IMG/VR virus record: IMGVR_UViG_3300045996_004119
Location: 32,001-96,000 of that record
Source: a virus
DNA length: 64,000 bases
Direction: 5' to 3' (one strand)
In this document: one piece after another, positions 5,741 through 35,909 of the stretch
How the letters are laid out: every line of letters starts with the position of its first letter
Position numbering within the stretch: position 1 is the first letter of the stretch
Position numbers and translations under genes: made by a program
The notes under the pieces: generated by a model
What the model was told of the DNA's origin: nothing
Databases searched by the model: none
What the model saw: the letters and a program-made list of their open reading frames with translations, nothing else

Positions 5741-7110
5741 TGCGGTGGGAGCACGCTCAGTGGAGGAAGCTCTACGTTCGAGAGGAGGGCTCCTTCGCAA
5801 TGCTCCCTCTCTACGTGCGGGCCCTTGCTGCGGAGCTCATGAAGTTCTGCGACGACCAGGGGCGCATCTTCGTCGGCGGACGAGCCCCGTGGGACGCGAT
5901 CGCGCGCATCGCGCGCGCTGACATGGGCGAGCGGCGTCTGCTCAAGCAGCACATCCCCATGCTCATCGCCGACGGCTACCTCGTGCAGGACGGGCAGCAC
6001 CTCATCATCAAGAACCTCGAGCGCGCGCAGGAGCGGCGCAGGCCAGGCTCCTCCGGCCCGGGTCGCAACGAGACCGGCACGACCGAGGAACGAACCGACG
6101 ACGACCTCGACACGAGCCTCGAACGAATCCGGAACGAACCGACGACGACCTCGACACGAGCCTCGAACGAATCCGGAACGAGAAGTGAGACAAGTGCGCG
6201 AAATGATTCAACCGCGACCCTCGCGTACGCGGGCGCGCGCTCAGTACAGAATAGAGAAGATCCGAGTAGATCCGAGGATCTTTCTTCATCATGGGCCGCG
6301 CCCGACGGCGGCGATCCGGAATTCGCCGAGCATCCCGCTGGGCGCGACCGTCCCCTGCCGCCTGCTTACCTCGAGCCCCAAGCCGAGCCGGAACAGCCGC
6401 GTGGAGGCAGCGGTCCATCCGGCGGGGAGCTCGCGCCGACCAACGGTCCTGCGGCTGCCCCAGGCCCCGACCTCCTGACGATGGCCACGTGGCTGGCCGA
6501 GTCGGGAAGCGGCTTCGGGCGCAAGATGGTCGACTGGGCCGCGGAACAACGGTCGTATTCGCCGTCGCAGAAGGAGAAGATCAGGGCGCTGTACGCCGAG
6601 CGCGTCGAGGCTCAGGCGAACGCGGAGCGCGCCAAGGCGGCCAAGGCCGAGCTAGACGCCGCGCCGGCCACCTCAAGGTCCCCAGCTGACGCAGCGAAAG
6701 CCGAGACCGACGCCATGGCGCTCTGGTGCGAGTTCTGGGGGAAGCGCCACGGGGGCGAGGCGTACCCGGTGACGGATCGCGACCGGGGCGCAATGCGCAA
6801 GCTCATGGCGCGCGCTCAGGCCAGGGCCAAGGAGGTCGGCTGCGAGCGCTTCCGCGAGGTGCTGGGCCACTACCTGTCCCGCTACCTCGCCATCGACGAC
6901 CGGAAGCTCGTCGCCGAGCGCTACCCGCTGCACCTGCTGGAGAGTCGAATGTCAGCGATCGGCGACTATCAGGCGGCCAAGGCGCGAGCACCTCGTCGCG
7001 CCCATGAGCCCGAGCCAGAGGGCACGCCGGCGCCGCCTGAGGCCATCGCTGCGCTGGCCAACATCCGGTTCGCTGCGCCGGTCGCGCGGCAGGCAGGAGG
7101 CGCGTCGTGA
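5737..7110 (+). CDS. Putative replication initiator/replisome organiser (lambda O-like position)
   Basis: Directly upstream of dnaB; folded N-terminal domain, low-complexity middle carrying DNA repeats, helical C-terminal domain. Confidence 0.65.
   Translation: MMRWEHAQWRKLYVREEGSFAMLPLYVRALAAELMKFCDDQGRIFVGGRAPWDAIARIARADMGERRLLKQHIPMLIADGYLVQDGQHLIIKNLERAQERRRPGSSGPGRNETGTTEERTDDDLDTSLERIRNEPTTTSTRASNESGTRSETSARNDSTATLAYAGARSVQNREDPSRSEDLSSSWAAPDGGDPEFAEHPAGRDRPLPPAYLEPQAEPEQPRGGSGPSGGELAPTNGPAAAPGPDLLTMATWLAESGSGFGRKMVDWAAEQRSYSPSQKEKIRALYAERVEAQANAERAKAAKAELDAAPATSRSPADAAKAETDAMALWCEFWGKRHGGEAYPVTDRDRGAMRKLMARAQARAKEVGCERFREVLGHYLSRYLAIDDRKLVAERYPLHLLESRMSAIGDYQAAKARAPRRAHEPEPEGTPAPPEAIAALANIRFAAPVARQAGGAS
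6087..6181. repeat. Exact 44-bp tandem repeat (2 copies plus 7 bp), candidate origin iterons
   Basis: GGAACGAACCGACGACGACCTCGACACGAGCCTCGAACGAATCC at 6087-6130 and 6131-6174, then GGAACGA. Confidence 0.9.
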
Positions 7111-9620
7111 GGCGCAAGAGCAACCTGGCCAAGGTCCTGCGGCTCGAGCCGAAGAAGGGGGCCGTCCCGCCGAACAACGTCGACGCCGAGGCGGCCGTGC
7201 TGTCGCAGGTTCTGCTTCACCCGGAGACGCTCGACGAAGTCGTCGATCTACTGAAGCCAGATCACTTCTACTCGTTCTCGAACTCCAAGGTGTTCGAGGC
7301 CATGATGGAGCTCGCCGGAACCGGCGCCGCCATTGACGTTGTGTCCGTGGCCGCTTGGCTTCAGGCAAGGGAGCTGTACCACAGGGTCGGCGGCATGGAG
7401 TACATGCTGCTGCTTCGAGACAGCATCCCGTCGTATGGCAAAAGCATCACGACGCACGCGAAGATCGTCCACGACCTGTGGCGGATCCGGGAGCTCGCCA
7501 TCGCGTGTCACCGCGGCGCCGCTGGCTGCTACGGCGACGTCGGCGACGTGCAGGCGTACGTCGACGACGTCGAGCAGTCGATTTACGACATCGCCCACGT
7601 GAGCGCGACGAACGACGCGCAGCCGATCGGCGCTGTCCTCCAGGATGCGTTCCGCGAGATCGTCGCCGTGGCCGAGAGCGGCGGGCGCATCTCCGGTCTG
7701 CCGACGGGGTACTACGATCTCGACGAGATGCTGGCCGGTCTCCATGGGGGGGACGTGACCGTCGTCGCCGGCCGACCCGGAATGGGCAAAGCGCAGCCTC
7801 TTGAGGCCAAGGTCCTCACGCCGATCGGCTGGAGGCTCATGGGTTCTCTCCAGGTCGGCGACCTCGTGATCGGTGCCGACGGTGCGTCCCACCGGATCAC
7901 AGGCGTATTCGACCGCGGCGAGCTCGACGTGTACCGCGTCACAACATCGGACGGCGCGAGCACGGAGTGCTGCGACGAGCACCTCTGGTTGACGCGGAAC
8001 CGCTCGGAGCGCCGGCGTGGCGTTCCGGGGGGCGTCCGGAAGCTCCGAGAGATCCGTGCGACCCTGGAGCGCGCAGCAAGCGGCGGGCTCAACCACAGCA
8101 TCCAGTTCATGAGGCCGGCGGAGTTCGAGCCGGTCGGCGATCTGCCAATCGACCCGTACCTCATGGGGATCTACCTCGGCGACGGGTGCGGCTCGGGGCG
8201 CCGGGTTGGCATCGACAACCCGGAGGCCGACATCCGCGAGCGCGTGAGGGAGCTCCTGCCGAAAGGTGACGCACTTACCGAGGCGCCGGACGGGCTGCAC
8301 ATGCGCATCAGGCGCGAGAAGCGCACAGGCGTCCAGAGCAACACGAGGGCATCGCTCGAGGCCATGGGGCTCACTGGGCGACGATCGTGGGAGAAGTTCA
8401 TCCCGGAGGTCTACCTGCGCGCGCCCGTCGCCGACCGCGTGGCCCTGCTCCAAGGGCTCTGCGACACCGACGGCTACGTCGTGCAGCCGAAGATCGTGGA
8501 GTACACGACGACCTCGCCTGCGCTCCTGGCCGGCCTGGAGTTCCTCGTCGGGTCGCTCGGTGGGCGCTTCACGTGGACCGAGAAGGATGCCCACTACACC
8601 AAGGCGGACGGCGCGCGGGTGCCAACGCGGAAGGCATATCGCGCCCTCATCAGCTTCCCCGGCGGGCACGTCACGCCGGTGTCGTCGCAGAAGCACCTGG
8701 CGAGATGGGCCGGTGGCCGCGTCCGCATCAGCGAGCGCTTCATTCAGCGCGTGGAGTACGTCGGGAAGAAGGCGTGCCGCTGCATCGCCGTCGACGCAGC
8801 GGACCACCTCTACGTGACCGACGGGTTCCTGGTGACGCACAATACGTCCAAGGTTTTGAACATTGCCGTCAACGTCGCGTCGCCGCGCGAGGAGCGCCGC
8901 GAGCACGGCGAGATGGCGACGGTCCCTGGTGAGGCGGCCGTGGTGTTCTCGCTCGAGATGCCGCGCGACCAGTTGGGCAAGCGCATGCTGTGCACCGAGG
9001 CGCGCGTCGACCTTGGCAAGCTCCGTCGCGGCAGGCTTCAGCCGGCCGACTGGAACAAGCTGACCGAAGCCGCAGCGCGCCTCGGCCCGCTACCGGTGAT
9101 CATCGAGGACACGCCAGGGCTGGGCCTCATGGAGATCCGCGCCCGCGTCAGGCGGCATCAGGCAACCTGCGCGCGGAACGGCATCAAGCTCGGGCTCGTG
9201 GTGATCGACTACCTACAGCTCATGCAGGGGCGAGAGGACGCCCGGAGCCGCGAGGAGGAGATCGGCGAGATTTCCCGCGGGCTGAAGCGGCTCGCGAAGG
9301 AGCTCAAGGTGCCGGTCATTGTGCTGTCGCAGCTGAACCGGGAGGTCGAGAAGCGGAGCGCCAAGACGAAGCGCCCTCAGCTCTCGGACCTCCGCGAGTC
9401 GGGCGCGATCGAGCAGGACGCCGACAACATCATCTTCATCACGCGCCGAGATTACTACGAGCAGGAGGACACGCCGAACGACTGGAAAGGGATCGCGGAG
9501 ATCGACGTGGCCAAGCAGCGCAACGGTGCCACCGGCCGCATCTACATGCGCTTTGACGCGTCGTGTACTCGGTTCGATAACCTGGCGCGCGAGGACTGGC
9601 CGCAGACTTCATGGGATTGA
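7107..9620 (+). CDS. dnaB: Replicative DNA helicase DnaB (intein-containing precursor)
   Basis: PPNNVDAEAAVL N-terminus, GRPGMGK/T Walker A, FSLEM, VVIDYLQLM, SRGLKRLAKEL, LSQLNR, DLRESGAIEQDAD, KQRNG. Confidence 0.97.
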   Translation: MRRKSNLAKVLRLEPKKGAVPPNNVDAEAAVLSQVLLHPETLDEVVDLLKPDHFYSFSNSKVFEAMMELAGTGAAIDVVSVAAWLQARELYHRVGGMEYMLLLRDSIPSYGKSITTHAKIVHDLWRIRELAIACHRGAAGCYGDVGDVQAYVDDVEQSIYDIAHVSATNDAQPIGAVLQDAFREIVAVAESGGRISGLPTGYYDLDEMLAGLHGGDVTVVAGRPGMGKAQPLEAKVLTPIGWRLMGSLQVGDLVIGADGASHRITGVFDRGELDVYRVTTSDGASTECCDEHLWLTRNRSERRRGVPGGVRKLREIRATLERAASGGLNHSIQFMRPAEFEPVGDLPIDPYLMGIYLGDGCGSGRRVGIDNPEADIRERVRELLPKGDALTEAPDGLHMRIRREKRTGVQSNTRASLEAMGLTGRRSWEKFIPEVYLRAPVADRVALLQGLCDTDGYVVQPKIVEYTTTSPALLAGLEFLVGSLGGRFTWTEKDAHYTKADGARVPTRKAYRALISFPGGHVTPVSSQKHLARWAGGRVRISERFIQRVEYVGKKACRCIAVDAADHLYVTDGFLVTHNTSKVLNIAVNVASPREERREHGEMATVPGEAAVVFSLEMPRDQLGKRMLCTEARVDLGKLRRGRLQPADWNKLTEAAARLGPLPVIIEDTPGLGLMEIRARVRRHQATCARNGIKLGLVVIDYLQLMQGREDARSREEEIGEISRGLKRLAKELKVPVIVLSQLNREVEKRSAKTKRPQLSDLRESGAIEQDADNIIFITRRDYYEQEDTPNDWKGIAEIDVAKQRNGATGRIYMRFDASCTRFDNLAREDWPQTSWD
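7791..8843 (+). mobile_element. Intein (351 aa) with LAGLIDADG homing endonuclease, class 3 signature, inserted in the DnaB P-loop
   Basis: Begins AQPLEAKVLTPIGW after GK, ends VTHN before Thr+1; DEHLW (Trp B12), CRCIAV (block F Cys), THN (Thr G5); LAGLIDADG blocks YLMGIYLGDG and LLQGLCDTDG. Confidence 0.93.
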
Positions 9621-9701
9621 CCATCTCGCCTTGCACGCCCAACCCCACCTGCTAAACAGCCATTGCGCAGCCGGGCGACCGTGAGCGCGGAGGAGACATG
9701 A

Positions 9702-9797
9702 ATGTCGACGGCTGAGGCCATCGTGGAAGTCACCAAGATCGTTGGGACGGTGACGTTGGTGCTAGGGATTTTCTGGTTCATCGGGAGGCGCGATTGA
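9702..9797 (+). CDS. 31-aa single-TM peptide (MSTAEAIVEVTKIVGTVTLVLGIFWFIGRRD)
   Basis: GGAGGAG upstream; hydrophobic stretch; TGA overlaps TTG of next gene. Confidence 0.55.
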   Translation: MSTAEAIVEVTKIVGTVTLVLGIFWFIGRRD

Positions 9798-10705
9798 GCC
9801 TCGCCACACCCGCTCTCCACGACATCGCCTCCTCGTCGCACCATCGCGACAGCGACGACCGGCTCAAGGACGCCGACAACCTCGCCTTCCTCGCCGGGCA
9901 GCCTGCCGACGTGCGCGCGGCGTGGCTTCCCGTATGCGGCGTCCTCCGCGAGCTCGACCGCATCATCGAGGCGGCGCGCCTCGACCGCGACCACGGCCGC
10001 CTGGAGCGCCTCCGCGAGGCATGGAACGCGCTCTGGACCGAGGGGCGCGTCCTCCCCAGCGACGAGGCGCGGGTTCTGCGGCGCGCTCGGGAGCTCTGGC
10101 TCGCCGACGAGAGCATCTCGGCCGTGGTGGCTGGTGCGTCCTTCGACGAGTACCTGGAGGCGGTCGTCGAGTACAGCCGGCCGGGCGTGGAGTTCCAGAG
10201 CCTCTGGGAGCACAACCGGATGCTCCTGCGCATCTCAGGCTCGATGTTTCGGCTGTTCCCGTTCGTGCAGCCGCACCAGCTTCGCGCGATCGGGCACTTC
10301 GGCGCCTTGGACCACTTCTTCAACAACCTCCGCGACATCCAGGAGGACGCCGAGGCGGAGCTCGTGTTCTTTCCGCGCGAGGTACTGGACCGCTTCGGCG
10401 TGCGGCGCGGGCACATCTCCACCGGGCGCGCCGTGGGCACACCGGAGTTCCGCGCGATGATGACGTGGTGGCTCGACGAGTACCTCCCGCAGGTGCGCGT
10501 GTGCGCGCGACCGTTCGTCGCCGCCGAGGACCTGCGCCCGTCGGTCGCGGCGCTGCGGGCGCACTCCCTGCGCCGGTACGCGCGCGTCGAGCGTGTGCTG
10601 CGGGGGCTGGACTTCGACTACCGGGCTTTCCCGCAGGTGTACGAGGCCGAGGTGCGGCGGGAGATCGGGGAGATGGCGCTGGGCGCGAAGGAGGTAACTG
10701 CATGA
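9794..10705 (+). CDS. Squalene/phytoene synthase-fold protein, divergent
   Basis: FFNNLRDIQEDAEAELVFFPREVLDRFGV matches the NxxRDxxED..G..YLP.E.L..FGV motif; first Asp-rich motif degenerate (RELDRIIE). Confidence 0.8.
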   Translation: MSLATPALHDIASSSHHRDSDDRLKDADNLAFLAGQPADVRAAWLPVCGVLRELDRIIEAARLDRDHGRLERLREAWNALWTEGRVLPSDEARVLRRARELWLADESISAVVAGASFDEYLEAVVEYSRPGVEFQSLWEHNRMLLRISGSMFRLFPFVQPHQLRAIGHFGALDHFFNNLRDIQEDAEAELVFFPREVLDRFGVRRGHISTGRAVGTPEFRAMMTWWLDEYLPQVRVCARPFVAAEDLRPSVAALRAHSLRRYARVERVLRGLDFDYRAFPQVYEAEVRREIGEMALGAKEVTA

Positions 10706-11049
10706 AGGCGAACGAGTTCTGCTACTGGCTGCAAGGGTACTTCGAGATCTGCGAGGCGCAGGGACTCTCGACGAAGCTCGATGGGGCGGCGGCGCGCTGC
10801 ATCGAGGCGCACCTGTCGCTTGTTGCGAAGGTGGAACCGGATCACAGCAACGTCTTCGTCGCGTGGCTGAATGACCACCTGAGGAAGCCGAGCCCGGTGG
10901 GGCCTGACGCGGTCCTGATCCGCCGGTTCCTCGCTGCGCAGTTCCAGCACGTGATCGACCCGTCGTACGGCGGCGACCAGATGGCGCTGGGGAAGATCCA
11001 TGGGACCGGCGGCCAGAGCTGGCCGACCGACGGGTTGATCCGGTGCTGA
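10702..11049 (+). CDS. Conserved phage hypothetical protein
   Basis: N-terminal EFCYWLQGYFEI...I.AHL.LV motif typical of a small phage protein family. Confidence 0.7.
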   Translation: MKANEFCYWLQGYFEICEAQGLSTKLDGAAARCIEAHLSLVAKVEPDHSNVFVAWLNDHLRKPSPVGPDAVLIRRFLAAQFQHVIDPSYGGDQMALGKIHGTGGQSWPTDGLIRC

Positions 11050-11060
11050 GGGAGGCCAGG

Positions 11061-14000
11061 ATGCACTGCGATCTGACGATCCGAGGCGCCACGCCGGAGC
11101 AGGCTGAGGGCGCCGTCAGCCCGAACGACCGCGAGCGCATCGGACGCGTGGTCCGCGAGATCTGGATCGACTGGGCCCGCGAGCAGCCGAGCCCGAAGCC
11201 GACGTGGCTCCTGCCGTGGGAGGACCTGACCGACACGTACCGGGAGGCTGGCTGCCGCATCGGGGAGCAGCTCTTCTCGATGGGGCTCATGGCCGGGCGC
11301 GCCGTGGGAGAGGAGGAGGTCGAGGCGCTGCGGAAGCGGGTGGCGGAGCTGGAGTTCACTCGCGACGAGCTCACCGGCATCCAGCAGGGCGACAGCGTCG
11401 TGGATGCGGCCGCGAAGGCGGAGAGCGTCGCCCTCCCGAAGCAACTGTCGGAGGCGCGCGCGGAAGCGACGACGCTGCGGGAGGACGTCGAGCGCTGGCG
11501 CAAGACCAACGGCGATATCGGAGCGGCCCTCGGGGTGAAGCCTGGCGAGGCCGTGCGCGACGCCGCAACCCGCGTCATCGCAGAGCGCGACCGCATCCAG
11601 CGCGACTGGGAGCAGCAAGGCGCGATGCTGCATGAGATCGAGGCCCGAGTGGCCGAACTCGACGCGACGTGCGATCGGGTGTGGGACGCGCTCGGCGCCA
11701 TCCGGACTGGCGAGGATCTGGCGGATGCCGTGGCGCGGCGCCTGGAGGAGGCGAGCGCGGATGCCGCCCCGGATGCCGTATCCCCGCTCCGGCCGGCGGA
11801 GGACATCGCGCGGGAGATGGTGGGCTGCGCCGTCGAGCGCTTCGGTGGCGACTGGGGCTTCACGGTCTGGACCAAGGGCACAGACGGTCGAGACGTCGAT
11901 CTGGTCGTCGATGGGTACGTGCGCGAGGAGTCGGCGAACCGCGACAGCAACAGCCTGCGCAAGACGATCGTGGACATCATCGAGCGCAGCCGCGCCGAGG
12001 GCAAGCGCGCGCCCGTCGAGGCGCCCCGCGTGGCGGCGGTGGTCGGGCCTCACATCTGCCGAGCCCACGACCGCGAGGTGTTCGTCGGCGATCGCGATGG
12101 GCTCAAGGGCTGCGACGAGACAAGCCCGCGCTTCTGGCACTGCACCATCCACCTGAACGGCGAGCACGTCGCGCTGGCCGGCAACGAGGTTTGCGCGCGC
12201 TGGCCCATCGCGCCGGCGCAGGATGAGCCGCAGGCGGCGAGCGAGGGCCGTGTGACCGGTTCGTATTGCGAAGTCGAGATGTCCTGGCCGCGCGGCGCGC
12301 AACCCGACTTGCTGGCGCTCGATGCCGCATGGCTCGTCGGGGCACCGGGCGCCCGTCAACCCGGATACATCCAGTCGCTCTACAGCCATCCCGCCGGGTT
12401 GCGCCTCGCGATGCCCAAAGACGCCGACCCCCGCGCCGTGCTCGCGACCGTGGCCGAGCTGTTGGGCCTGCAGGACCAGCAAGACGAAGCGCGCGCCCTG
12501 TCCGATCTCCGGCGCGCGCACCACGCAGAGCGTGACGACGAGCCCGCGAACATCGACGACCGTTGGCAGCACCGCCGAGAGCGGCTGTCGCGCGACACGC
12601 ACGGATCCGCGAGTGCGTTCGAGCGCGCCTATCTCCACGGGATGAGGGACGCATACACCGTGGCCGGCGTCGAGATGCGGCGGGCGCGTGGGCAGGCCGA
12701 GCGCGAGCTCGGCAACCCTGCCGTGCTCAAGCACTGGTCGGACCGGACGCCCGACGAGATCGAGCGGTGGGCCGAGGAGGCCGAGGGCGACAACCCACGT
12801 CACGCGTCGTGGTGCCGCGGCGTCGCCGCTGGCATCCGCGAGGGTGAGCGGCGGGCCGGCGAGGCGTGGCAGCGCGCGACCGAGGCGGGCTCGCCGGCGG
12901 GCGCTGCTGGAGCGATGGCCGGGTTCCGCGCGCGCAACAGGGCCTGGCAGGACGCGACGGGCGTTGAGCAGCCGGAGTATGTGCAAGCCGCGAAGGCATC
13001 TCTCGTCGAGCGCGCGATCACGCAGCTCGAGGTCGGGATCGCGGAAGGCGAGCGCCGCGCCGAGGAGAAGGCGCGCCTCGATGTCGAGCGCGCCGTGGCC
13101 GCCGAAGCCGCACGGGGCGACGCGGCGAGGCTCGAGGTGCACGAGAAGTACCTTGCGACGGCGCGGGAGCTCGTGACCGACTGGGAAGAGCGGCGCACGA
13201 ACAACATCGCTGGACGCGACGACACCAATCTTTCGCGGTTCACCCGCGATCGGCTTGGGGCGAAGGCGGACGCGCGCGAGACCTGCATCAACGATCTCCG
13301 CGCCGCATTCAACCTCTCCGACAACAAGCCGCCGACGGGGGGAGAGCCGGCGCCGGTGGACAATGGGCCAGCGCATGGTCCAGGGTGCGACGTGCGCGCC
13401 GACAGGACGCAATGCGCGTTCGACTGCCCGAAGCGGCGCGCCGACATGGCCAAGCGATCGGAGGCTGTTGCGGATCGCGCAACTACTCACGTCGAGCCCG
13501 CGCAGCAGTCGACCGACGAGCGCCCGGGGCTCGCCGCCGGGCAGACGTGGCGCGACGTTAGCGGGGCCGAGTACCTGATCCAGGAACGCGAGGAGCGCAC
13601 GCCTTGTTCTACGCTGTTCGCCGTCTCCGCGGGCGGTGGCCTCGTGCCCATGTACCGCGCCGACGCGCCGAGCGGCTGGACCATCGTGTCCGACGCGCCC
13701 GCCGCCGAGCGCTGGCGGCCGGGCGCCGTGTGGGAGCGCATCGGCGAGCGTGTCACGGTGCGCGATTCGAGCGACGATGAGATCGTGTTCTGCGAGCATG
13801 GCTGGTGCACGGATCGGCACCTGATGACCGAGCGGAACGGCTGGCGCTACGTCGGCCCCGGCGCGGCGTCGGGTGGCAACGGCATGGAGGCAGACGGAGC
13901 GCAGATCGAAGCGCCTCTTGGGGCTCAACCTGAAACACCAAACGTGCCAACCTCCTGTCAAGTTATTCCGTCGGGAGCGGAGAGTTCTACGGGCGCAGGA

Positions 14001-14630
14001 TGCTCGGGGCCAGCGCCCGTCGTCCCCGGCAAGCCCTCTGCCGAGGAGCGCGCCGCCGTGCAGCAGCAAGTGGACATCGGCGCCGGGGTCACGTCCACGG
14101 CCCCCAGCGGGATGACGCTCGGCGGGGTGTGGGAGGCGCTCAAGCGCGTCGCTCGCGTCGACCGCGAGGAGGCCATGTCCATCGAGCGCGCGCACGCGGA
14201 CGGCATCGTCGAAGGGCTCCGCCGCGCCAGGGACATCGCGCGGCGCATGTCGGACGCCGACCGGCTCCAGGCTGTCGACGTCCACGAGATGCACGAGCGG
14301 CTCGACGCGGCCGTGCGCGAGGCAGCGGCCAACGTCGCACCAGCCGACCTGCCCCACGTGGACCGGTCGGCGCTTCTGGGGCTCGCGACGGGGTGGGAGC
14401 GCGCCGACACGCGACTGAGCGCGAAGGCTGCCGACGCGAGGCGAGACGAGGCAACCCGACGCGTATACGAAGGCGAGGCGCGCGGGTTCGCGGTTGCCGC
14501 GCTGGAGCTCCGTCGCCTCCTGGACGCGCCGAGCGGGCCTGGGGGAGAGCGCGCGACCTGCCGCGTCGGTCACGGCGTCGACGACGCCTGCGCGGAGTGC
14601 GCGCCTCGGCGCGCAGGAGGATGGAGATGA
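11061..14630 (+). CDS. Large mosaic accessory protein (about 1,189 aa, Ead/Ea22-like concatenated modules, coiled coils)
   Basis: GGAGG then ATG at 11061; uninterrupted frame with high GC3; N-terminal PTWLLPWEDL module and repeated small domains. Confidence 0.75.
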   Translation: MHCDLTIRGATPEQAEGAVSPNDRERIGRVVREIWIDWAREQPSPKPTWLLPWEDLTDTYREAGCRIGEQLFSMGLMAGRAVGEEEVEALRKRVAELEFTRDELTGIQQGDSVVDAAAKAESVALPKQLSEARAEATTLREDVERWRKTNGDIGAALGVKPGEAVRDAATRVIAERDRIQRDWEQQGAMLHEIEARVAELDATCDRVWDALGAIRTGEDLADAVARRLEEASADAAPDAVSPLRPAEDIAREMVGCAVERFGGDWGFTVWTKGTDGRDVDLVVDGYVREESANRDSNSLRKTIVDIIERSRAEGKRAPVEAPRVAAVVGPHICRAHDREVFVGDRDGLKGCDETSPRFWHCTIHLNGEHVALAGNEVCARWPIAPAQDEPQAASEGRVTGSYCEVEMSWPRGAQPDLLALDAAWLVGAPGARQPGYIQSLYSHPAGLRLAMPKDADPRAVLATVAELLGLQDQQDEARALSDLRRAHHAERDDEPANIDDRWQHRRERLSRDTHGSASAFERAYLHGMRDAYTVAGVEMRRARGQAERELGNPAVLKHWSDRTPDEIERWAEEAEGDNPRHASWCRGVAAGIREGERRAGEAWQRATEAGSPAGAAGAMAGFRARNRAWQDATGVEQPEYVQAAKASLVERAITQLEVGIAEGERRAEEKARLDVERAVAAEAARGDAARLEVHEKYLATARELVTDWEERRTNNIAGRDDTNLSRFTRDRLGAKADARETCINDLRAAFNLSDNKPPTGGEPAPVDNGPAHGPGCDVRADRTQCAFDCPKRRADMAKRSEAVADRATTHVEPAQQSTDERPGLAAGQTWRDVSGAEYLIQEREERTPCSTLFAVSAGGGLVPMYRADAPSGWTIVSDAPAAERWRPGAVWERIGERVTVRDSSDDEIVFCEHGWCTDRHLMTERNGWRYVGPGAASGGNGMEADGAQIEAPLGAQPETPNVPTSCQVIPSGAESSTGAGCSGPAPVVPGKPSAEERAAVQQQVDIGAGVTSTAPSGMTLGGVWEALKRVARVDREEAMSIERAHADGIVEGLRRARDIARRMSDADRLQAVDVHEMHERLDAAVREAAANVAPADLPHVDRSALLGLATGWERADTRLSAKAADARRDEATRRVYEGEARGFAVAALELRRLLDAPSGPGGERATCRVGHGVDDACAECAPRRAGGWR

Positions 14631-21886: not shown

Positions 21887-22140
21887 CGGCGCGCACGCCG
21901 CTCGACGTGGAGATCGACCGCGTGACGGCGGCGGTGCGGCGTGCGGCGGAGGCACTCGACGCTCTGCGCTCCGAGGCTGCCGGTGGATGCTGCCCGGACT
22001 GCGTGCTCGGGGGTCGGTACACGGTTCCGGCAGAGGCGCAGACGCGGCGGCGCGCGTGGCTCGTGGTGCTGCTCGGGAAGCGCGGGGCTGCCGGCGACGC
22101 CGATCTGGCACGCTCCGTCGAGTGGGGGACATGGCCGTGA
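21883..22140 (+). CDS. Small hypothetical protein with CCPDC
   Basis: GGAGG upstream, coupled at both ends. Confidence 0.5.
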   Translation: MTARTPLDVEIDRVTAAVRRAAEALDALRSEAAGGCCPDCVLGGRYTVPAEAQTRRRAWLVVLLGKRGAAGDADLARSVEWGTWP

Positions 22141-23741
22141 CCGGCGAGCCCGCGGGCCTCGGCGAGCTCGTGCTGCGGAAGCGGCGCGAGATGGCGGCGC
22201 GCACCAAGGCGCTGCCGACGTGGACGCCGCAGCCCGGGCCGCAGCGCGCGTTCATCGAGAGCACGGCGCGGGAGATCCTGTACGGCGGCGCGGCCGGTGG
22301 CGGAAAAACTTCCGGGTTGGCCGCGCTCCCGCTGCCGTGGGCACGCCGGCGCGAACTCGTATGCCTCTACCTCCGCCGCACCAACCCTGAACTCGAGGAC
22401 CTGAAGCGCAAGGCCGAGCAGATCTACCAGCTCGGGAAGGATGGGAAGTTCGCGCCCGCGTGCCCGGAAGCGACATTCCGCGAGGACAAGGGCACCTGGA
22501 CCTTCCGCTGGGGCAAGGATGTCGGGGCCACGGCGATCTTTGGTCACTGCAACGACAAGGACGATTGGAAGCGTTACGTCGGGCATGAGTACCAGATCAT
22601 TTGTTTCGACGAGCTGACCTGGTTCACCGAAGAGCAGTACGACGAGATCTGCAAGCGGCTCCGGTCGAGCGCTGGCGGCCTGCCGCGCATGATCCGGGCG
22701 ACGAGCAATCCGGGCGGACCGGGGCACGCTTTCGTTTTTAGGCGCTGGGGACCGTGGCTCGATCCGGAGTTCGCGATGCCGGACGAGGAGATCGAGTGGT
22801 TCGACTCCGATGGCGCACGGCGAGTCGCCGTCATCCGCGGTCTGCCCACCCGCATCGAGAACGGCCGCCGTGTGCCGCCGGCCAAGTCCGGCCAGGTCCT
22901 CTACGTCGCCAAGATCAAGGACCGAGAGGTCTTCTCGACTGAGCCGTTCGAGTTCGACGGCGCCGACGCGCTGACCCGCACGTTCATCGGCGCGAAGCTG
23001 AGCGACAACCCGGAACTCCTGAAGGAGGACCCGAACTACCGGGCCGCCCTGCGCCAAGGCTCCGAGCTCCGGCGCCGTCAACTCGAGGACGGCGACTGGC
23101 TCGCGAAGCCGGCGGCGGGGATGTACTTCAAGCGCGAGTGGTTCAAGCTCGTCGAGCCGGACGAGGTGCCGGAAAAGCTAGTTTGCTGCCGGTCGTGGGA
23201 CAAGGCAGCGACCGAGCCGCACCCGAAGAATACCGACCCGGACTGGACGCGCGGGCTCAAGGGCGGCAAGTGCGCCGACGGATTCTACTGGTTGCTCGAC
23301 CTGAAGAGCCTGCGGAGCAACCCCGGCGACGTCACGGCGCTCATCAAGGACACCGCCGAGGAGGACGGCCAAGAGGTTCGCATCACCGTGCCGCAAGACC
23401 CGGGCGCCGCGGGGGTGCAAGCGTCCGCCAGCGACGTGCAGGCGCTCGAGGGCTACATCGTCACGGCGAAGAAGGCCTCGGCCAACAAGGCGGCGCGCGC
23501 CGAGCCAGCGGCGAAACAGGCGCACCCGCAGTCGACCGGCGGCATGCACGGGCGCTTCCGCATGGTCCTGGCGCCGTGGACCGAGACCGTGCTCTCGGAG
23601 TTCGAGAGCTTCGACGGGGCCGACAACAACGGAGAGCACGACGACATCGTGGATGCGCTCTCCGACCTCTACGACGAGCTCAAGGGCGTCGACCTCGACG
23701 AGGACTGGAAGCCGATCAAGGCCGGCAGGCGCAGATGGTGA
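22131..23741 (+). CDS. terL: Terminase large subunit
   Basis: PQPGPQ..F, LYGGAAGGGKT Walker A, ICFDELT Walker B, RATSNPGGPGH, C-terminal nuclease SWDKAA...DWT, EGQDPG-like and HDDIVDALS. Confidence 0.95.
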   Translation: MAVTGEPAGLGELVLRKRREMAARTKALPTWTPQPGPQRAFIESTAREILYGGAAGGGKTSGLAALPLPWARRRELVCLYLRRTNPELEDLKRKAEQIYQLGKDGKFAPACPEATFREDKGTWTFRWGKDVGATAIFGHCNDKDDWKRYVGHEYQIICFDELTWFTEEQYDEICKRLRSSAGGLPRMIRATSNPGGPGHAFVFRRWGPWLDPEFAMPDEEIEWFDSDGARRVAVIRGLPTRIENGRRVPPAKSGQVLYVAKIKDREVFSTEPFEFDGADALTRTFIGAKLSDNPELLKEDPNYRAALRQGSELRRRQLEDGDWLAKPAAGMYFKREWFKLVEPDEVPEKLVCCRSWDKAATEPHPKNTDPDWTRGLKGGKCADGFYWLLDLKSLRSNPGDVTALIKDTAEEDGQEVRITVPQDPGAAGVQASASDVQALEGYIVTAKKASANKAARAEPAAKQAHPQSTGGMHGRFRMVLAPWTETVLSEFESFDGADNNGEHDDIVDALSDLYDELKGVDLDEDWKPIKAGRRRW

Positions 23742-28846: not shown

Positions 28847-30670
28847 ATGCCCATCCTCGACCGCGCGCTCCGCATGTACGCCGCTGCGCGCGAGGCGCTA
28901 GCGCCGGGGCAGCCTACCGCAACGGCTGCGCCCACGGCGTCGTCGATGCCGCGTGGCGTGGCCGAGCTGCTCCACCGGCTCGTGGGCAGCGCCAACTCGC
29001 CGCCGGTATCCCCGGCCATCGAGGCGCAGCGCCTCGCGACGTTCCACGTCGAGCCGTCGGTCCGCACCTATCTGCGGTGGACGCCGTCAGACCTGACGTC
29101 CGCGCTCCAGCAGGCCGACGCCGGCAACCTCCGGATGGCGGCCGACCTGTGCGAGGCGATCCTCGGCGACGACCGAGCCGTGGCGGTGCTCAACACGCGT
29201 GTGAACGCCGTACTCGGCTCCGACCTCACGTTCGAGGCCGGGCGCGGACGGTCGAAGAAGAAGGCTGTTCGCGCGCTCGAGGCCGACGAGGACTGGTACG
29301 CCGCCTGGAGCGAGGCCGTGCTGGGGCAGATGCTGCTCTGGGGTCGCCTGCTCGGCATCTCCCCGGCGCAGCAGAACTGGCAGGGGATCGATGGGCACGG
29401 CGGGCGCCTGATCCCCGTCGTCGAGAACTGGCACGCGCGGCACCTCCGGCAGGACTCGCTGACGCGCGCGTGGTGGATGCGCGTCGGCAACGGCGGCGAA
29501 GAGGCCCAGGTCAGCCCTGGCGACGGCAAGTGGATTCTGTTCATGCCCTACGGCCCGAATCGGCCGTGGGCGCATGGACTCTGGCGCGGCTTCGCGCGGC
29601 TCTGGTTGCTGAAGCAGTACGCGATCGACGACTGGGGCAAGCACTCGGAGGCCCACGGCAACCCGATGAAGCTCGGGATCCCGCCGAAGGTCGGAGAGGC
29701 GAACCACGGGAACAAGAAGCTCCGTCAGGAGCTCGCGGACGACCTGGCGCAGCTCGGGGCGAACTCGTCGCTGGTGCTCCCGCCCGGCTTCGACTTCAAG
29801 CTGGTCGAGGCGACGGCGAACACCTGGGAGATGTTCAAGGCCCAGATCGACATGGCCAACAACGCCATGAGCGTGATGGCCATCGGCACGAACCTCCCGA
29901 CTGAGGTGGGCAACGGGGCGGCGACGGGCGCGACGGCGCAAAACCTCGTGCGGCTCGACTACAAGAAAGCCGACGCCGAGGCGCTGAGCACCATGGCCCA
30001 CGACCAGAACCTGGTCTGGTGGGCCGAGTTCAACTTCGGCGACGCAGGGCTCGCTCCGTGGCCGGTCTGGGACGTGGTGCCGCCGGCCGACCAGAAGGCC
30101 AGGGCGGATGTGCTGAGCACCTTTGCGAGCGCCCTCGACAAGCTCACCGAAGCGAACGTCCCGGTGGACATCCCGAAGCTCGCCGAGGAGTTCGAGGTGC
30201 CGCTGCGCGAGGTGGCCGAGTCCCGCGTGCAGAGCCCGCGCATCTTCGAGTACCACCTCAAATACGGCATTCTGAAGAAGAACGAGATCCGGCAATCGCT
30301 CGGGTACGACCCGGAGTCCGGCGGGGACGTCATCCCCGAACCGATCGTGCAGGTGCCCGGCACGAAGCCGACGGCACAGCGGCCGGAGGAGGAGAACGCC
30401 GCGGCGAGCGTTGCGCACCTCGCCTCGCTCGCGGAGGCGCACAACGCCGCGCACGACGACCAGCGACGCCAGACCACCGTGGAAACGCTCCGCGCGGTCT
30501 GGGGCCGCGGGGCCGCGCTAGCGACGGGCGTCGACCGCGACGCCTGGGCCATGGGCCGCGTGGAGGCCTTCCTTCACCTCCTGGCCATGGGGGAGCCGGA
30601 GCACCCGACGTACGTGGCCGACAACGATCTGCTGCCCGATGGGCACGAGCGGAGGACGACCGATGCCTGA
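28847..30670 (+). CDS. Portal protein (Mu gp29/DUF935-like) with appended C-terminal domain
   Basis: A..LCE.IL.DD..V...LNTR..AVL...L.F, GLWR......WL.KQY....W....E..G.P...G, S..VLP.G.DF.LVE motifs; position after terL region. Confidence 0.88.
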   Translation: MPILDRALRMYAAAREALAPGQPTATAAPTASSMPRGVAELLHRLVGSANSPPVSPAIEAQRLATFHVEPSVRTYLRWTPSDLTSALQQADAGNLRMAADLCEAILGDDRAVAVLNTRVNAVLGSDLTFEAGRGRSKKKAVRALEADEDWYAAWSEAVLGQMLLWGRLLGISPAQQNWQGIDGHGGRLIPVVENWHARHLRQDSLTRAWWMRVGNGGEEAQVSPGDGKWILFMPYGPNRPWAHGLWRGFARLWLLKQYAIDDWGKHSEAHGNPMKLGIPPKVGEANHGNKKLRQELADDLAQLGANSSLVLPPGFDFKLVEATANTWEMFKAQIDMANNAMSVMAIGTNLPTEVGNGAATGATAQNLVRLDYKKADAEALSTMAHDQNLVWWAEFNFGDAGLAPWPVWDVVPPADQKARADVLSTFASALDKLTEANVPVDIPKLAEEFEVPLREVAESRVQSPRIFEYHLKYGILKKNEIRQSLGYDPESGGDVIPEPIVQVPGTKPTAQRPEEENAAASVAHLASLAEAHNAAHDDQRRQTTVETLRAVWGRGAALATGVDRDAWAMGRVEAFLHLLAMGEPEHPTYVADNDLLPDGHERRTTDA

Positions 30671-33034: not shown

Positions 33035-33309
33035 GCGAACGCCTGGGCCGCGGGGATGCTGGGCTGGCAGAGGACCTCCTGCCGCTCGCCGATCGGCGCG
33101 AGGTCGGCGCCCCCGTCCCTTGGGTCGCCCTCGGCGACATCGTACTGGAGGCCGAGCGGCTCCGGGAGCACGGAACGCTCTCCCCGGCGGCCTTCGCCTC
33201 GCTGCGGCGGCGGGCGCGCGGGCTGGTTGCCAGCCTCCCCGGCTACAGGCAGGCCGAAGCCTTGATGTCGCTCGACGCGCTGGACCCCAGCCGCTCGAGC
33301 GGCAGCTGA
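33031..33309 (+). CDS. 92-aa protein, candidate immunity partner of MuF-GNAT
   Basis: ATGA-coupled immediately after the MuF C-terminal domain. Confidence 0.55.
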   Translation: MSERLGRGDAGLAEDLLPLADRREVGAPVPWVALGDIVLEAERLREHGTLSPAAFASLRRRARGLVASLPGYRQAEALMSLDALDPSRSSGS

Positions 33310-33374
33310 ACCACGAAGATCTTCGCGTCCGGGCAAGGGCCGCGAGCCCTCACGCATCAACCGGAGACATCGCG

Positions 33375-35909
33375 GTGCAGGACCTCGCAAGCGACACCGA
33401 GCCTCGCGACGCCGGCCACGTTGCCGCCCTCGGCTCGCCGAGCCAGCCCCGGGATGCCGATGGCAAGTGGACGGACGGGCGCGGGGGAGGGCGCTCGGCG
33501 CCCGCTGGTGACGTCGGCGGGCCTGGGCGAGGCGGCAACAGCAGCGATTCCGGCAGCAGCGGCTACAGGCCCGGCGGGAGTTGGCGAGGGCGCAGCCGCG
33601 GCGGGAGCAAGGGCGGCAAGGCCCCAGGTGCAGCTGACGCCTCTGGCGCATCCGACGGCCGCTCGGCGGCGCAGAAGAAGCGCCACGCCGACCAGCGCGA
33701 CACGGCCGACGTCGCGGAGAAGCGGGCGCGGTCTCACGAGGCGAAGGCGCAGAAGGCTCGCGACGAGGCCGCGCAGAAGCGACAGGAGCTCGAGGACACG
33801 AGGGACAGCGTCGAGCCGAAGAGGCGGCGCGCCGAGGAGCTGGAGGAGGCGTACCAGCGCAAGCTCGAGGCGCACGAGGAGGCAGAGCGGCGCTTCGACG
33901 AGGAGAACTTCGAGGACGTCCCCGACGCGCGCCGCAACAAACTCGCCGAGGAGGCAGACCAGGCGCGTGGCGAGATGCGCGCGGCGAAGCGCGAGGTGGC
34001 CGAAGCGGGCAAATCGCACAGGGCGGCCGAGCGCAGGGTGTCCCGCCTAGAAGACGAGTACGACGCGGCGCGCGAGGAGGCTGTCTCTCGTCGCCTCGAC
34101 GCCGACACGGCCCGCAATCGAGCAAACATCGAGCGCGAGCACACGGACCTGCTGGAGCGGCCGCACGCCGAATACTCGGCGGAGGTGCGGAAACGCGCCG
34201 CAGACGCGAAGCGCGACGTCGCCAAGGCGACCGAAAAAGCCGACGTTGCAGAGCGCGATCTCGACACGATGCGGAAGAGCGAACAGGCGGCGATCGACGA
34301 GTCTATCCGCGGGCAGCACGCGAATCAGGCAGAGCGCGCTCGAGCGTACGACCAGGCCAAAGGAGCGGAGGATGCTCGCAAGTCCGCCGAGGAGCGGGCG
34401 ATGGCCGCGGACAACGATCGCAAGGTGGCGAGCATCCGCGCCAAGTACTGGGCCGAGGCCGCTAGGGAAGCCCGCAGGCTCAAGCCAGGCCCCATCGACG
34501 GAGATGGCGACGGCCGCGTGAACGAGGCCGAGCGATCCGACCAACTATCCGACGGCCCGAGCGCCGACGAGGACACCATGACCACCATCGAGACGCTCTC
34601 TGTCGGAGACGACGTCCCGCTCGAGCTCGTCAACGGGCAGGCGCCGCGAGAGCTCCGTCTCTTCCGGAGGGGCGAGAACCCGAGCACGAAGGGGAGCTTC
34701 CTTTTCGACGACACGGCCGCGCAGAAGGTCATGTCGACCTACCAGCGGATGGGCCGCAAGTGGGTCTCCATCGACTACGACCACGGGTCGCTGCAGCGGA
34801 ACCCGGTCGACCCGAGCAAGAGCGCCCGCAGCGCGGGTAGAGCTCCGCTGGAGCTTCGCGACGGCGAGCTGTGGGCGACAAACATCCAGTGGACCCCCGC
34901 GGCGAAGGCCGGAATCGAAGCCGGGGAGTGGCCGTCGGTGTCGCCCGCGTTCGCGCACGGCGAAGACCGGCGTCCCACGTGGGTGATGAACTTCGGGCTC
35001 ACAGGCAACCCGGCACTCCACAGCCCAGCGGAGCTCGTCGCGGCCAACGTGCTGCGCGCGCTCTTCGACCCGACCGAACCAGATGACCAGGGGGTGACTC
35101 CGCTCGCCTCCACCACGACGGGCGACAGGCCCGCGCAAACCGAGGCTCCGGCCACGGAGGAACAGAGCATGAAGAAGCGAACTGCTGCCGAGGTGGCCGA
35201 GTTCTTCGGGGTCACCGAGGACGAGGCGAAGGTGTGGATGGCCGCCGCGCACGGCGAGCCGAAGAAGATGCTGAGCGCGGCTGTCGCGCTGAGCGTGGGC
35301 CTCTCGGCGGAGACCGAGGAGGACGTCCTCGTGACGCGCCTCTCCGCACTCTCGTCGGCGGAGCGGCGCGTGCTCTCCGCGCTCGACGTGAAGAGCATCG
35401 ATGATGCGCTCGGCGCGATCACCGGCCTCAAGAAGGCGGCCAAGGACGCCGAGAGGCTCGCAGCGTCGCTCGCCGACATCCAGGGGAAGCAGATCCGCTC
35501 CGAGGTGGAGACGATGCTCTCCGCAGCCAAGGACGCGAAGAAGCTCACCCCCGCCGAGGTGGCCGACGAGAGCGAGGCGAGCCTGCGCGCGACGGCGCTG
35601 TCCATGGGCGACAAGGGCCCCGGCTGGCTCAAGGCGCACATCGCGCAGCGGCCGGTGATCGAGGTGCTGAACACCACCTTCAAGCAGCCGGAGACGAAGC
35701 CGAATCCGGAGGGCGATCAGAAGCCCAAGGTCGACGTCGGCGGCAAGACGTACGCCCAGCTCTCCAACATGGAGAAGCACGAGCTCTCGCAGCGTGACCC
35801 GCAGCAGTTCGCGGCGCTGCGCGAGGCGCACCTGAACTCGCTCCCGGCGAACACCTACCCGGTCCCCGACCAGCAGCGCGGGGGCATGTTCCGCGACCTC
35901 CCCGGCTGA
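33375..35909 (+). CDS. Mu gpI-like prohead protease/scaffold with long N-terminal coiled-coil extension
   Basis: GGAG-GTG 33375; protease motifs SIDYDH, A.G...L..RDG.LWA..I.WTP.A...I..GEW..VSPAF, GLTGNPAL; in-frame internal starts at 34578 and 35169. Confidence 0.85.
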   Translation: MQDLASDTEPRDAGHVAALGSPSQPRDADGKWTDGRGGGRSAPAGDVGGPGRGGNSSDSGSSGYRPGGSWRGRSRGGSKGGKAPGAADASGASDGRSAAQKKRHADQRDTADVAEKRARSHEAKAQKARDEAAQKRQELEDTRDSVEPKRRRAEELEEAYQRKLEAHEEAERRFDEENFEDVPDARRNKLAEEADQARGEMRAAKREVAEAGKSHRAAERRVSRLEDEYDAAREEAVSRRLDADTARNRANIEREHTDLLERPHAEYSAEVRKRAADAKRDVAKATEKADVAERDLDTMRKSEQAAIDESIRGQHANQAERARAYDQAKGAEDARKSAEERAMAADNDRKVASIRAKYWAEAAREARRLKPGPIDGDGDGRVNEAERSDQLSDGPSADEDTMTTIETLSVGDDVPLELVNGQAPRELRLFRRGENPSTKGSFLFDDTAAQKVMSTYQRMGRKWVSIDYDHGSLQRNPVDPSKSARSAGRAPLELRDGELWATNIQWTPAAKAGIEAGEWPSVSPAFAHGEDRRPTWVMNFGLTGNPALHSPAELVAANVLRALFDPTEPDDQGVTPLASTTTGDRPAQTEAPATEEQSMKKRTAAEVAEFFGVTEDEAKVWMAAAHGEPKKMLSAAVALSVGLSAETEEDVLVTRLSALSSAERRVLSALDVKSIDDALGAITGLKKAAKDAERLAASLADIQGKQIRSEVETMLSAAKDAKKLTPAEVADESEASLRATALSMGDKGPGWLKAHIAQRPVIEVLNTTFKQPETKPNPEGDQKPKVDVGGKTYAQLSNMEKHELSQRDPQQFAALREAHLNSLPANTYPVPDQQRGGMFRDLPG

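Follow-up and report, generated by a model that had tools for sequence, protein, structure and literature searches.

The locus

The window analysed here is a stretch of 64,000 nucleotides (bases 32001-96000 of the 126,110-bp IMG/VR virus record IMGVR_UViG_3300045996_004119), and our subject is a gene on its plus strand, at 9794..10705, which encodes a 303-residue protein (P0001) placed by Pfam, an AlphaFold (AF2) model, Foldseek and a family alignment in an unnamed, divergent subfamily of the squalene synthase/phytoene synthase (SQS/PSY) fold. A first-pass annotation, made from the sequence alone, had singled out this open reading frame (ORF) behind dnaB for the strings NNLRDIQED and FPREVLDRFGV, and every string that it quoted is indeed present. 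Codon bias across the ORF is typical of coding DNA (GC3 0.88, GC2 0.46). Translation would start at a TTG (9794), the earliest start possible in frame, with GGGAGG 5 nt 5' of it at 9783-9788; relatives that are 82-86% identical share this start position, and the next downstream candidate would cut off invariant N-terminal residues.

The gene sits in a chain of tightly overlapping reading frames, in the order dnaB, a 31-amino-acid (aa) ORF, the SQS-like gene, a 115-aa ORF and a 1195-aa ORF. The TGA of the 31-aa ORF overlaps the TTG of the SQS-like gene (TTGA), whose own stop overlaps the ATG of the 115-aa ORF (ATGA), which in turn overlaps the start of the 1195-aa ORF. A scan for promoters and terminators around the 303-aa gene returned no site, using E. 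coli-type consensus patterns that carry little weight for a myxobacterial host. The chained stop/start overlaps, together with the lack of a promoter- or terminator-like site of its own, indicate that the gene is part of a replication operon. Upstream lie genes for a thymidylate kinase (tmk), an MT-A70 methyltransferase, a DnaA-like helix-turn-helix protein, a 457-aa protein and DnaB, and the terminase and structural genes lie downstream, such that the SQS-like gene is bounded by phage genes on both sides.

Fold and active site

P0001 matches the Pfam family SQS_PSY (PF00494) over residues 37-228 with 33.7 bits, against a gathering cut-off of 26 (E 4.2e-8), which bears out the isoprenoid-synthase match anticipated in the first-pass annotation. 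The AF2 model, built with 27 homologues as input, has a mean pLDDT of 90.3; its best Foldseek matches are dehydrosqualene synthases (E 2e-5, TM 0.64-0.72), and CrtM is likewise the best in the model comparison by VIA-align, where CrtM and CrtM-like entries superpose with Z scores of 20-21 and a root-mean-square deviation of 3.2-3.5 A over 255-260 of the 303 residues. Lower Z scores were obtained for LvqB4 and CqsB4 (18.5-18.8), HpnC (18), human SQS (17.5) and YisP (16.5), and for class I terpene cyclases (about 15). With such a model, the predicted all-alpha class I isoprenoid-synthase fold of the SQS/PSY type can be regarded as certain. The subfamily cannot be read from these Z scores, as they do not tell CrtM from non-condensing members of the fold. 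P0001 alone, searched against the PDB with phmmer, gave chance coiled-coil matches and no SQS or CrtM chain, while the family profile reached CrtM chains at E 4e-5 and chains of the NzsG/DmtC1/CqsB4 type at E 0.009-0.02, differences that are small.

Active-site residues were mapped through two independent alignments, one of the family profile to CrtM chains and the other, by hhalign, to canonical HpnD-like proteins (probability 97.3). The first metal-binding segment, R52-E-L-D55-R-I-I-E59 (9947..9970, plus strand), carries DxxxE in place of the canonical D(D/E)xxD, and in both alignments R52, D55 and E59 fall on the arginine, the first aspartate and the last aspartate of RxxD(D/E)xxD. The canonical Asp-rich motif is thus not present as such, position 2 being an arginine in 140 of 156 family members, and positions 1 and 5 are acidic. 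The first-pass annotation had given RELDRIIE for this motif; the string is correct, and aligned sequences indicate a motif that is altered to DxxxE but not abolished, with both predicted metal-ligand positions still acidic.

A second departure was correctly recognized from the outset. In the equivalent of the YCxxVAG segment, M143-LLRIS-G149 (10220..10240, plus strand), both alignments put Met143 in the column of the catalytic tyrosine (Y129 of CrtM; YMYGSA in canonical proteins), and across the 156 family members this position is Met in 137 and Tyr in one. The second metal-binding segment, D173-H-F-F-N177-N178-L-R180-D181-I-Q-E184-D185 (10310..10348, plus strand), is by comparison intact: aligned to CrtM QLINILRDVGED, its N177, R180, D181, E184 and D185 correspond to N168, R171, D172, E175 and D176, and the residues of the N-x-x-x-D-x-x-E-D motif (N177, D181, E184, D185) are kept in 98-100% of the family. 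By equivalence with CrtM and SQS, the conserved R52, D55, E59, N177, R180, D181, E184, D185, R261 and R264 occupy the positions that hold diphosphate and Mg.

To these are added invariant polar residues that belong to the family (D22, K25, D26, D173 and N178). The N-terminal motif D22-x-x-K25-D26 (9857..9871, plus strand) is conserved in 95-99% of the 156 members and in 18 of 18 members of the phage clade described below. Judging from how positions are offset in the Pfam and structural alignments, and from CrtM structures, this motif may replace the canonical SKSF segment, and on the same grounds we presume that the extra acids may exclude a second diphosphate.

An unnamed branch of the SQS/PSY fold

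A word-indexed search returned 27 clusters of homologues, all 27 with PF00494, and an exhaustive phmmer search extended these to 103 representatives (50% identity), of which 80 have E below 1e-10; canonical synthases surfaced in the latter search only at E of about 1e-5. Source databases label the homologues 'phytoene synthase'. The NCBIfam equivalog models for HpnD, HpnC and CrtB give the family 20-36 bits against cut-offs of 250-550, short by an order of magnitude (for P0001, 26.6 versus 278.6 on HpnD and 20.2 versus 250.45 on HpnC, with no CrtB model reached), whereas two canonical controls (P0122 and P0128) score 182-235 bits on the HpnD and HpnC models. In a maximum-likelihood tree (quick search, SH-aLRT support only, rooted on canonical proteins) the family forms a separate clade, parted from canonical HpnD-like proteins by a branch of approximately 2 substitutions per site. 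One 3198-aa candidate (P0125), with six weak stretches of similarity, was discarded as an unrelated protein of biased composition.

Conservation within the family is concentrated in the active site. Across the 156 members, D22, K25, D26, W44, R52, D55, E59, G149, P156, G170, D173, Q174, N177, N178, R180, D181, E184, D185, P194, R261, R264 and Y283 are conserved in 91-100%; R52, D55 and E59 are kept in 97-98%, the named residues of the second segment in 92-100%, and every signature residue in 18/18 members of the phage clade. Sequence comparison thus supports a distinct, unnamed branch of the SQS/PSY (head-to-head trans-prenyltransferase) fold, and the claim that P0001 is no simple CrtB or SQS copy holds on the grounds of NCBIfam scores far below cut-off, a separate clade and the absent tyrosine. 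The accompanying idea of an active site 'rewired' specifically in phage has to be given up, as the signature is family-wide and common to chromosomal genes of Sorangium and cyanobacteria. The fold itself is well known, and the novelty lies in a divergent branch of it that is uncharacterised and has an unusual carrier. Our literature search found no account of this family, nor of a squalene/phytoene-synthase-like gene in a phage.

The phage branch

The carrier is a complete, temperate-type phage of the soil bacterium Sorangium. The virus genome in its record spans 126,110 bp, bears direct terminal repeats, is rated 100% complete and contains terminase, portal, head and tail genes, in keeping with the original description of the gene as phage-borne. 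No close relative was found among deposited phages, with terminase identity at most 34%.

P0001 belongs to a clade of 18 (SH-aLRT 97), comprising proteins from two IMG/VR contigs (L081, 101 kb; L082, 98 kb), second copies in Sorangium So ce388 and So ce134 (prophage loci L022 and L023) and metagenome proteins; its closest relatives are P0002 (86% identical), P0003 (82%) and P0004. The lysogens So ce134 and So ce388 therein carry two copies each, a host version and a phage version. Wherever DNA context is available (the window, both contigs and both prophages), the gene is found in the replication module (5/5 loci), directly after dnaB in the window and in L023. The latter prophage is syntenic with the window, with MT-A70 92%, DnaB 76-91%, tmk 74% and the 457-aa candidate initiator 71% identical, and L081, L082 and L022 have other module genes in common with the window. 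Scanning IMG/VR with a conserved neighbour returned only the two known contigs, with the result that the gene is present in 5/5 known members of this phage group; the same database scanned with the candidate replication initiator, and metagenomes scanned with P0001, gave no match. Searching viral databases for homologues and conserved neighbours has yielded two contigs with the enzyme but not the 31-aa peptide that had been proposed as its partner.

In the tree, whose basal branching order is not settled, the phage copies group outside the clade of chromosomal Sorangium genes, to which they are approximately 42% identical; separation and distance together argue against recent capture from the host. 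Phage copies that are 77-80% identical have dN/dS ratios of 0.33-0.48, compared with 0.24-0.28 for host copies (Nei-Gojobori estimates, crude at 70% G+C; deep pairs of the window with L081 or L023 are saturated and were left out). Homologues are accordingly more than the decaying host copies which the first-pass annotation had considered as a contrary outcome, forming a phage-specific clade under purifying selection. Within this one phage group the gene comprises two deep allelic lineages, a split that might reflect replacement, an arms race or relaxed constraint.

In tailed phages, genes of the isoprenoid-synthase fold are all but unknown. PHROGs hold no family for the enzyme or for the 31-aa peptide, BFVD gives no structural match below E 0.2, and 50,697 GenBank phage records contain no homologue of the SQS-like protein, in agreement with the earlier statement that no such tailed-phage system had been described. 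Canonical SQS/PSY genes occur in three of these 50,697 records (one Ralstonia, two Staphylococcus), whatever DNA they lie in. A 2026 survey of auxiliary genes in myxophages lists no isoprenoid-synthase-fold gene among its auxiliary metabolic genes (AMGs; 10.64898/2026.09.14.751636).

Cellular copies and their surroundings

Chromosomal copies were detected in 19 of 19 Sorangium species genomes searched, and all Sorangium genomes found have theirs at a syntenic site; the orthologue of So ce56 lies at L014 9908-10909. The family extends to Chondromyces, a few Polyangiaceae and metagenome-assembled genomes (MAGs) of other Myxococcota. It is rare elsewhere in the phylum (1/301 sampled Myxococcota, 4/101 sampled Polyangiaceae), and recurs in many filamentous cyanobacteria (Leptolyngbya-like forms, Limnothrix, Stenomitos). 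One Sorangium genome contains, besides a full chromosomal copy, a 62-residue family fragment (G401:C1:820020-820205, E 2e-22) that may be what is left of a copy in a prophage.

In all ten myxobacterial loci examined, a HAMP-PAS-HisKA-HATPase kinase gene lies convergently 3' of the homologue, accompanied where checked by a single-domain response regulator (two-component genes at L014 10897-13652, L041 10938-13968, L065 1979-4837, L068 11240-13591, L055 4227-6356 and L072 3301-5430). In most loci these kinases are convergent and not co-transcribed; in two deep-branching MAG loci a hybrid PAS kinase-receiver is encoded directly upstream of the homologue, on the same strand. Cyanobacterial homologues are divergent from accD in 35 of 39 loci, with genes for psbV-type cytochrome c550, plastocyanin (petE) and cytochrome c6 (petJ) beyond (examples within L017-L080 include L049 8519-9448, L027 7085-7582 and L056 4187-4606). 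We considered and rejected accD, psbV, petE, petJ, rhomboid and ferrochelatase as members of a common pathway, since their proximity looks like lineage synteny. Thirteen cyanobacterial loci have, directly downstream of the homologue, a gene for a 151-aa protein that faintly resembles HD or DUF2336.

Natural fusions of an N-terminal HMG-CoA reductase to a C-terminal SQS-like domain of this family occur in two clusters, both from metagenomes (P0056 and P0130-P0132, 691-692 aa, on up to 6 contigs; P0098, 720 aa). Judged from sequence, these fusions are the only direct pointer to isoprenoid metabolism apart from the fold, and suggest such a role. A metagenome scan with the fusion P0130 returned mostly plain HMG-CoA reductases with no family member adjoining, and weak matches of canonical type in L148 and L127. 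A gene cluster for an aromatic acceptor was not found around the phage, Sorangium or cyanobacterial copies.

Comparison with known enzymes

Structurally the closest systems are CrtM and CrtM-like proteins (PDB 2zco, 3ae0, 8is6, 5iys), SQS, HpnC, HpnD and CrtB, with which P0001 shares the all-helical fold, the second motif N-x-x-R-D-x-x-E-D and the arginine before the first motif. Unlike these canonical synthases, the P0001 family has DxxxE, Met for Tyr and the extra invariant D22, K25, D26, D173 and N178, and P0001 is phage-encoded. NDUFAF6, a divergent SQS/PSY-fold assembly factor of complex I, has been proposed to act non-catalytically; set against this description, the P0001 family has lost none of its metal and diphosphate ligand positions, and is bacterial and phage-borne. 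YisP of Bacillus subtilis (PDB 3we9), a farnesyl diphosphate phosphatase with the same fold (Z 16.5), hydrolyses its substrate instead of condensing it. YisP is not known to have the second Asp-rich motif, which the P0001 family keeps invariant.

A working analogy for a reaction of a single diphosphate is provided by the PSL prenyltransferases NzsG, DmtC1 and CqsB4/LvqB4 (PDB 7vwt, 7vws; Z 18.5-18.8), since NzsG and DmtC1 use the SQS/PSY fold to attach one prenyl group to an acceptor of non-prenyl type (PMC6173783). Sequence similarity between these enzymes and the P0001 family is marginal (profile E 0.009-0.02), and whereas the PSL enzymes are encoded in carbazole and diketopiperazine clusters of actinomycetes, members of the P0001 family are found without a cluster or acceptor-forming genes. 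As a phage gene, P0001 resembles AMGs such as psbA of cyanophages and cysH of myxophages, in being a host-type metabolic gene in a complete phage genome with an orthologue in every Sorangium. It differs from known AMGs in that PHROGs, BFVD and the GenBank phages hold no homologue or structural counterpart, and in that the phage copy is no recent host capture.

Proposed function and alternatives

We favour, with some caution, the reading that the product of the gene is a folded protein from a distinct branch of the SQS/PSY fold, probably active as an enzyme, which carries out a non-canonical prenyl-diphosphate reaction, and that the gene is a phage AMG version of a host activity. The enzyme would bind one host allylic prenyl diphosphate, either farnesyl diphosphate (FPP) or geranylgeranyl diphosphate (GGPP), via Mg2+, and ionise it. 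As the family lacks the tyrosine which canonical enzymes need for the cyclopropyl intermediate, the prenyl cation could then be captured by a non-canonical acceptor, as in NzsG, DmtC1 and CqsB4, or by water, as in the phosphatase YisP, and the product would be something other than squalene or phytoene. Expression from an operon of replication genes would have the enzyme act during replication, when the phage may add a second, 42%-identical version of an activity encoded by every Sorangium genome; for the host gene, a metabolic role may be deduced from its fold and from the HMG-CoA reductase fusions. No further isoprenoid gene was detected in the carrier genome (polyprenyl synthase, UbiA and UPPS were looked for), so substrates must be supplied by the host. 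Ligand positions conserved in 92-100% across clades that are 30-45% identical present the pattern of a working active site.

A more specific and rather speculative version, which we hold to be possible but doubtful, extends to the whole family: an undescribed reaction of Mg-dependent ionisation, followed by capture of the cation by a polar acceptor at D22/K25/D26/D173/N178, with the phage version either making or depleting, in the course of replication, an isoprenoid-derived molecule that may in turn feed the two-component system which flanks the host gene.

Several observations weigh against an AMG of this kind. Substrate, product and activity of the family are what we infer from fold and residues; cellular homologues stand alone, with no biosynthetic cluster around the copies examined; and the same lack of further isoprenoid genes in the phage leaves no pathway defined. 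The sensor kinases and response regulators beside the Myxococcota copies could equally fit a regulatory role. Of the genes that close phage backbones have in common (the window versus L023, L081 and L082), none diverges more than the SQS-like gene, at 45-47% identity compared with 66-92% for its flanks, and this strong divergence, together with dN/dS somewhat above that of hosts, fits relaxed or diversifying selection. Finally, the subclade of the window (P0001-P0003) departs from the family at three sites that are more than 90% conserved, Q174H, G189E and C191V (window codons 10313-10315, 10358-10360 and 10364-10366), which turn the family's 'AGxCYFP' into 'AELVFFP'.

Some of these points would also fit a pseudo-enzyme, a ligand-binding regulator or an assembly factor in the manner proposed for NDUFAF6, whose phage copy interferes with or replaces the host protein in signalling or assembly. 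The catalytic tyrosine is gone, a histidine kinase stands beside the gene in ten of ten myxobacterial loci (with a same-strand hybrid PAS kinase also upstream in two deep-branching ones), no homologue examined lies in a biosynthetic cluster, and divergence between close phages is strong, as in genes of host interaction. We nevertheless consider this explanation unlikely, as each position that would bind Mg or diphosphate is retained in 92-100% of the 156 members, the HMG-CoA reductase fusions suggest a metabolic role, and the kinases are in most loci not co-transcribed with the homologue. Of the options raised in the first-pass annotation (a half-reaction enzyme or prenyl-diphosphate sink, a prenyltransferase or a pseudo-enzyme), the last is less likely than an active enzyme given the acidic first-motif positions, the invariant second motif and the arginines. 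An ordinary host-derived phytoene, squalene or dehydrosqualene synthase (of CrtB, HpnD, HpnC or CrtM type), boosting carotenoids or hopanoids, would agree with the 'phytoene synthase' label of the databases and with CrtM entries as best structural matches; it is improbable in view of the NCBIfam deficit, the single-sequence PDB search without an SQS or CrtM chain, the Met at the Tyr position, the DxxxE motif, the long branch to canonical proteins and the inability of Z scores to discriminate.

Location in a replication and nucleotide module, together with thymidylate kinase and an MT-A70 methyltransferase, allows for a non-isoprenoid diphosphate ester as substrate, for example pyrophosphorylated 5-hydroxymethylpyrimidine (an allylic-type diphosphate) in phage DNA modification, and a second substrate that is polar or cationic would agree with D22, D26 and D173. 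This we judge highly improbable, as the cyanobacterial and Sorangium homologues are single chromosomal genes without DNA-modification neighbours and the HMG-CoA reductase fusions point to isoprenoids; no hypermodification enzyme is known to have the SQS/PSY fold. Decay of a captured host gene to a non-functional relic is scarcely credible: the TTG start codon and the three subclade departures might be taken for signs of decay, but the frame is intact with strong coding bias, full-length relatives are 82-86% identical, all signature residues are kept, dN/dS is below 0.5 and the gene is present in 5/5 related phage and prophage loci. The latter, combined with the preserved active-site signature, argues that manipulation of host isoprenoids pays for these phages.

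Should the more specific and speculative version above be correct, tailed phages would have their first isoprenoid-enzyme function in this gene. More broadly, an uncharacterised enzyme family is delimited, core to the natural-product-rich Sorangium, present in many filamentous cyanobacteria and in two HMG-CoA reductase fusion clusters, in which DxxxE, the Tyr to Met exchange and new invariant acids predict a chemistry unlike squalene or phytoene synthesis. Its members are small and soluble proteins, with orthologues in cultivable hosts.

The 31-aa ORF and the variable slot

Upstream of the SQS-like gene, the 31-aa ORF (9702..9797, plus strand) is marked by its translation signals and the TTGA overlap, with a Shine-Dalgarno sequence GGAGGAG (9689..9695, plus strand) 6 nt before its ATG, read from the sequence and situated in a context that is conserved in L023 before a different small ORF. 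The predicted peptide has one hydrophobic stretch (IVGTVTLVLGIFWFIG), with a 16-residue core of mean Kyte-Doolittle hydropathy about 2.2 (hand count), followed by a C-terminal RRD, and has no Pfam or PHROG match. That a real small protein is made from it is quite plausible. L022, L023, L081, L082 and the other fetched loci, the set to which this comparison extends, yielded no homologue, with the contigs of the nearest relatives (P0002, P0003 and P0004) lying outside it.

The slot 5' of the SQS-like gene (window 9621-9793) is variable, and holds unrelated small ORFs in each phage: one of approximately 77 aa, Cys-rich and zinc-finger-like, in L023 (9637-9943); another that is Cys-rich and zinc-finger-like in L082 (about 9740-10004); one of 109 aa in L022 (9672-10001); and one of 111 aa in L081 (9606-9941). 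In the window and in L023 the slot ORFs follow a conserved leader and Shine-Dalgarno sequence. Unrelated ORFs in the slot of relatives, and the lack of a peptide homologue, imply that the 31-aa peptide is lineage-specific and, on present sequences, no conserved or defining partner of the enzyme. The proposal of a membrane peptide coupled upstream consequently survives as regards the ORF, its Shine-Dalgarno sequence, the TTGA overlap and the hydrophobic core, but not as regards an enzyme-peptide system.

Carrier genes and downstream ORFs

The window has a G+C content of approximately 70%. Its phage genes include those for a large terminase (21987-23741), a portal protein (28847-30670), a MuF-like head protein, a head protease (33120-35909), a major head protein (36012-36911), a tail sheath (40253-42010) and a tape measure protein (43010-45346); sheath, tape measure and head genes together identify a contractile-tailed phage. 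The dnaB gene for the replicative helicase (7107..9620, plus strand; Pfam DnaB, DnaB_C in two stretches and LAGLIDADG_3; PHROG 19) is split by an intein, giving a product of 837 aa with the LAGLIDADG_3 domain at aa 445-486. DnaB of L023 (7795-9636) comprises 613 aa without an intein, and the extein parts are 76-91% identical to DnaB of the window. The 457-aa candidate initiator encoded upstream of dnaB has no Pfam or PHROG match.

Downstream, the 115-aa ORF that is ATGA-coupled to the stop of the SQS-like gene (10702..11049, plus strand) has only a weak match to PHROG 28500. At the same position, ORFs that are 88% and 66% identical are found in L082 and L081, respectively, and none in L022 or L023; on sequence grounds it is a better candidate for a partner of the enzyme than the 31-aa peptide. 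The next gene of the operon encodes the 1195-aa protein (11043..14630, plus strand), which belongs to no Pfam or PHROG family, and shares short stretches with large proteins encoded at the same position in L022 (1146 aa), L081 and L023.

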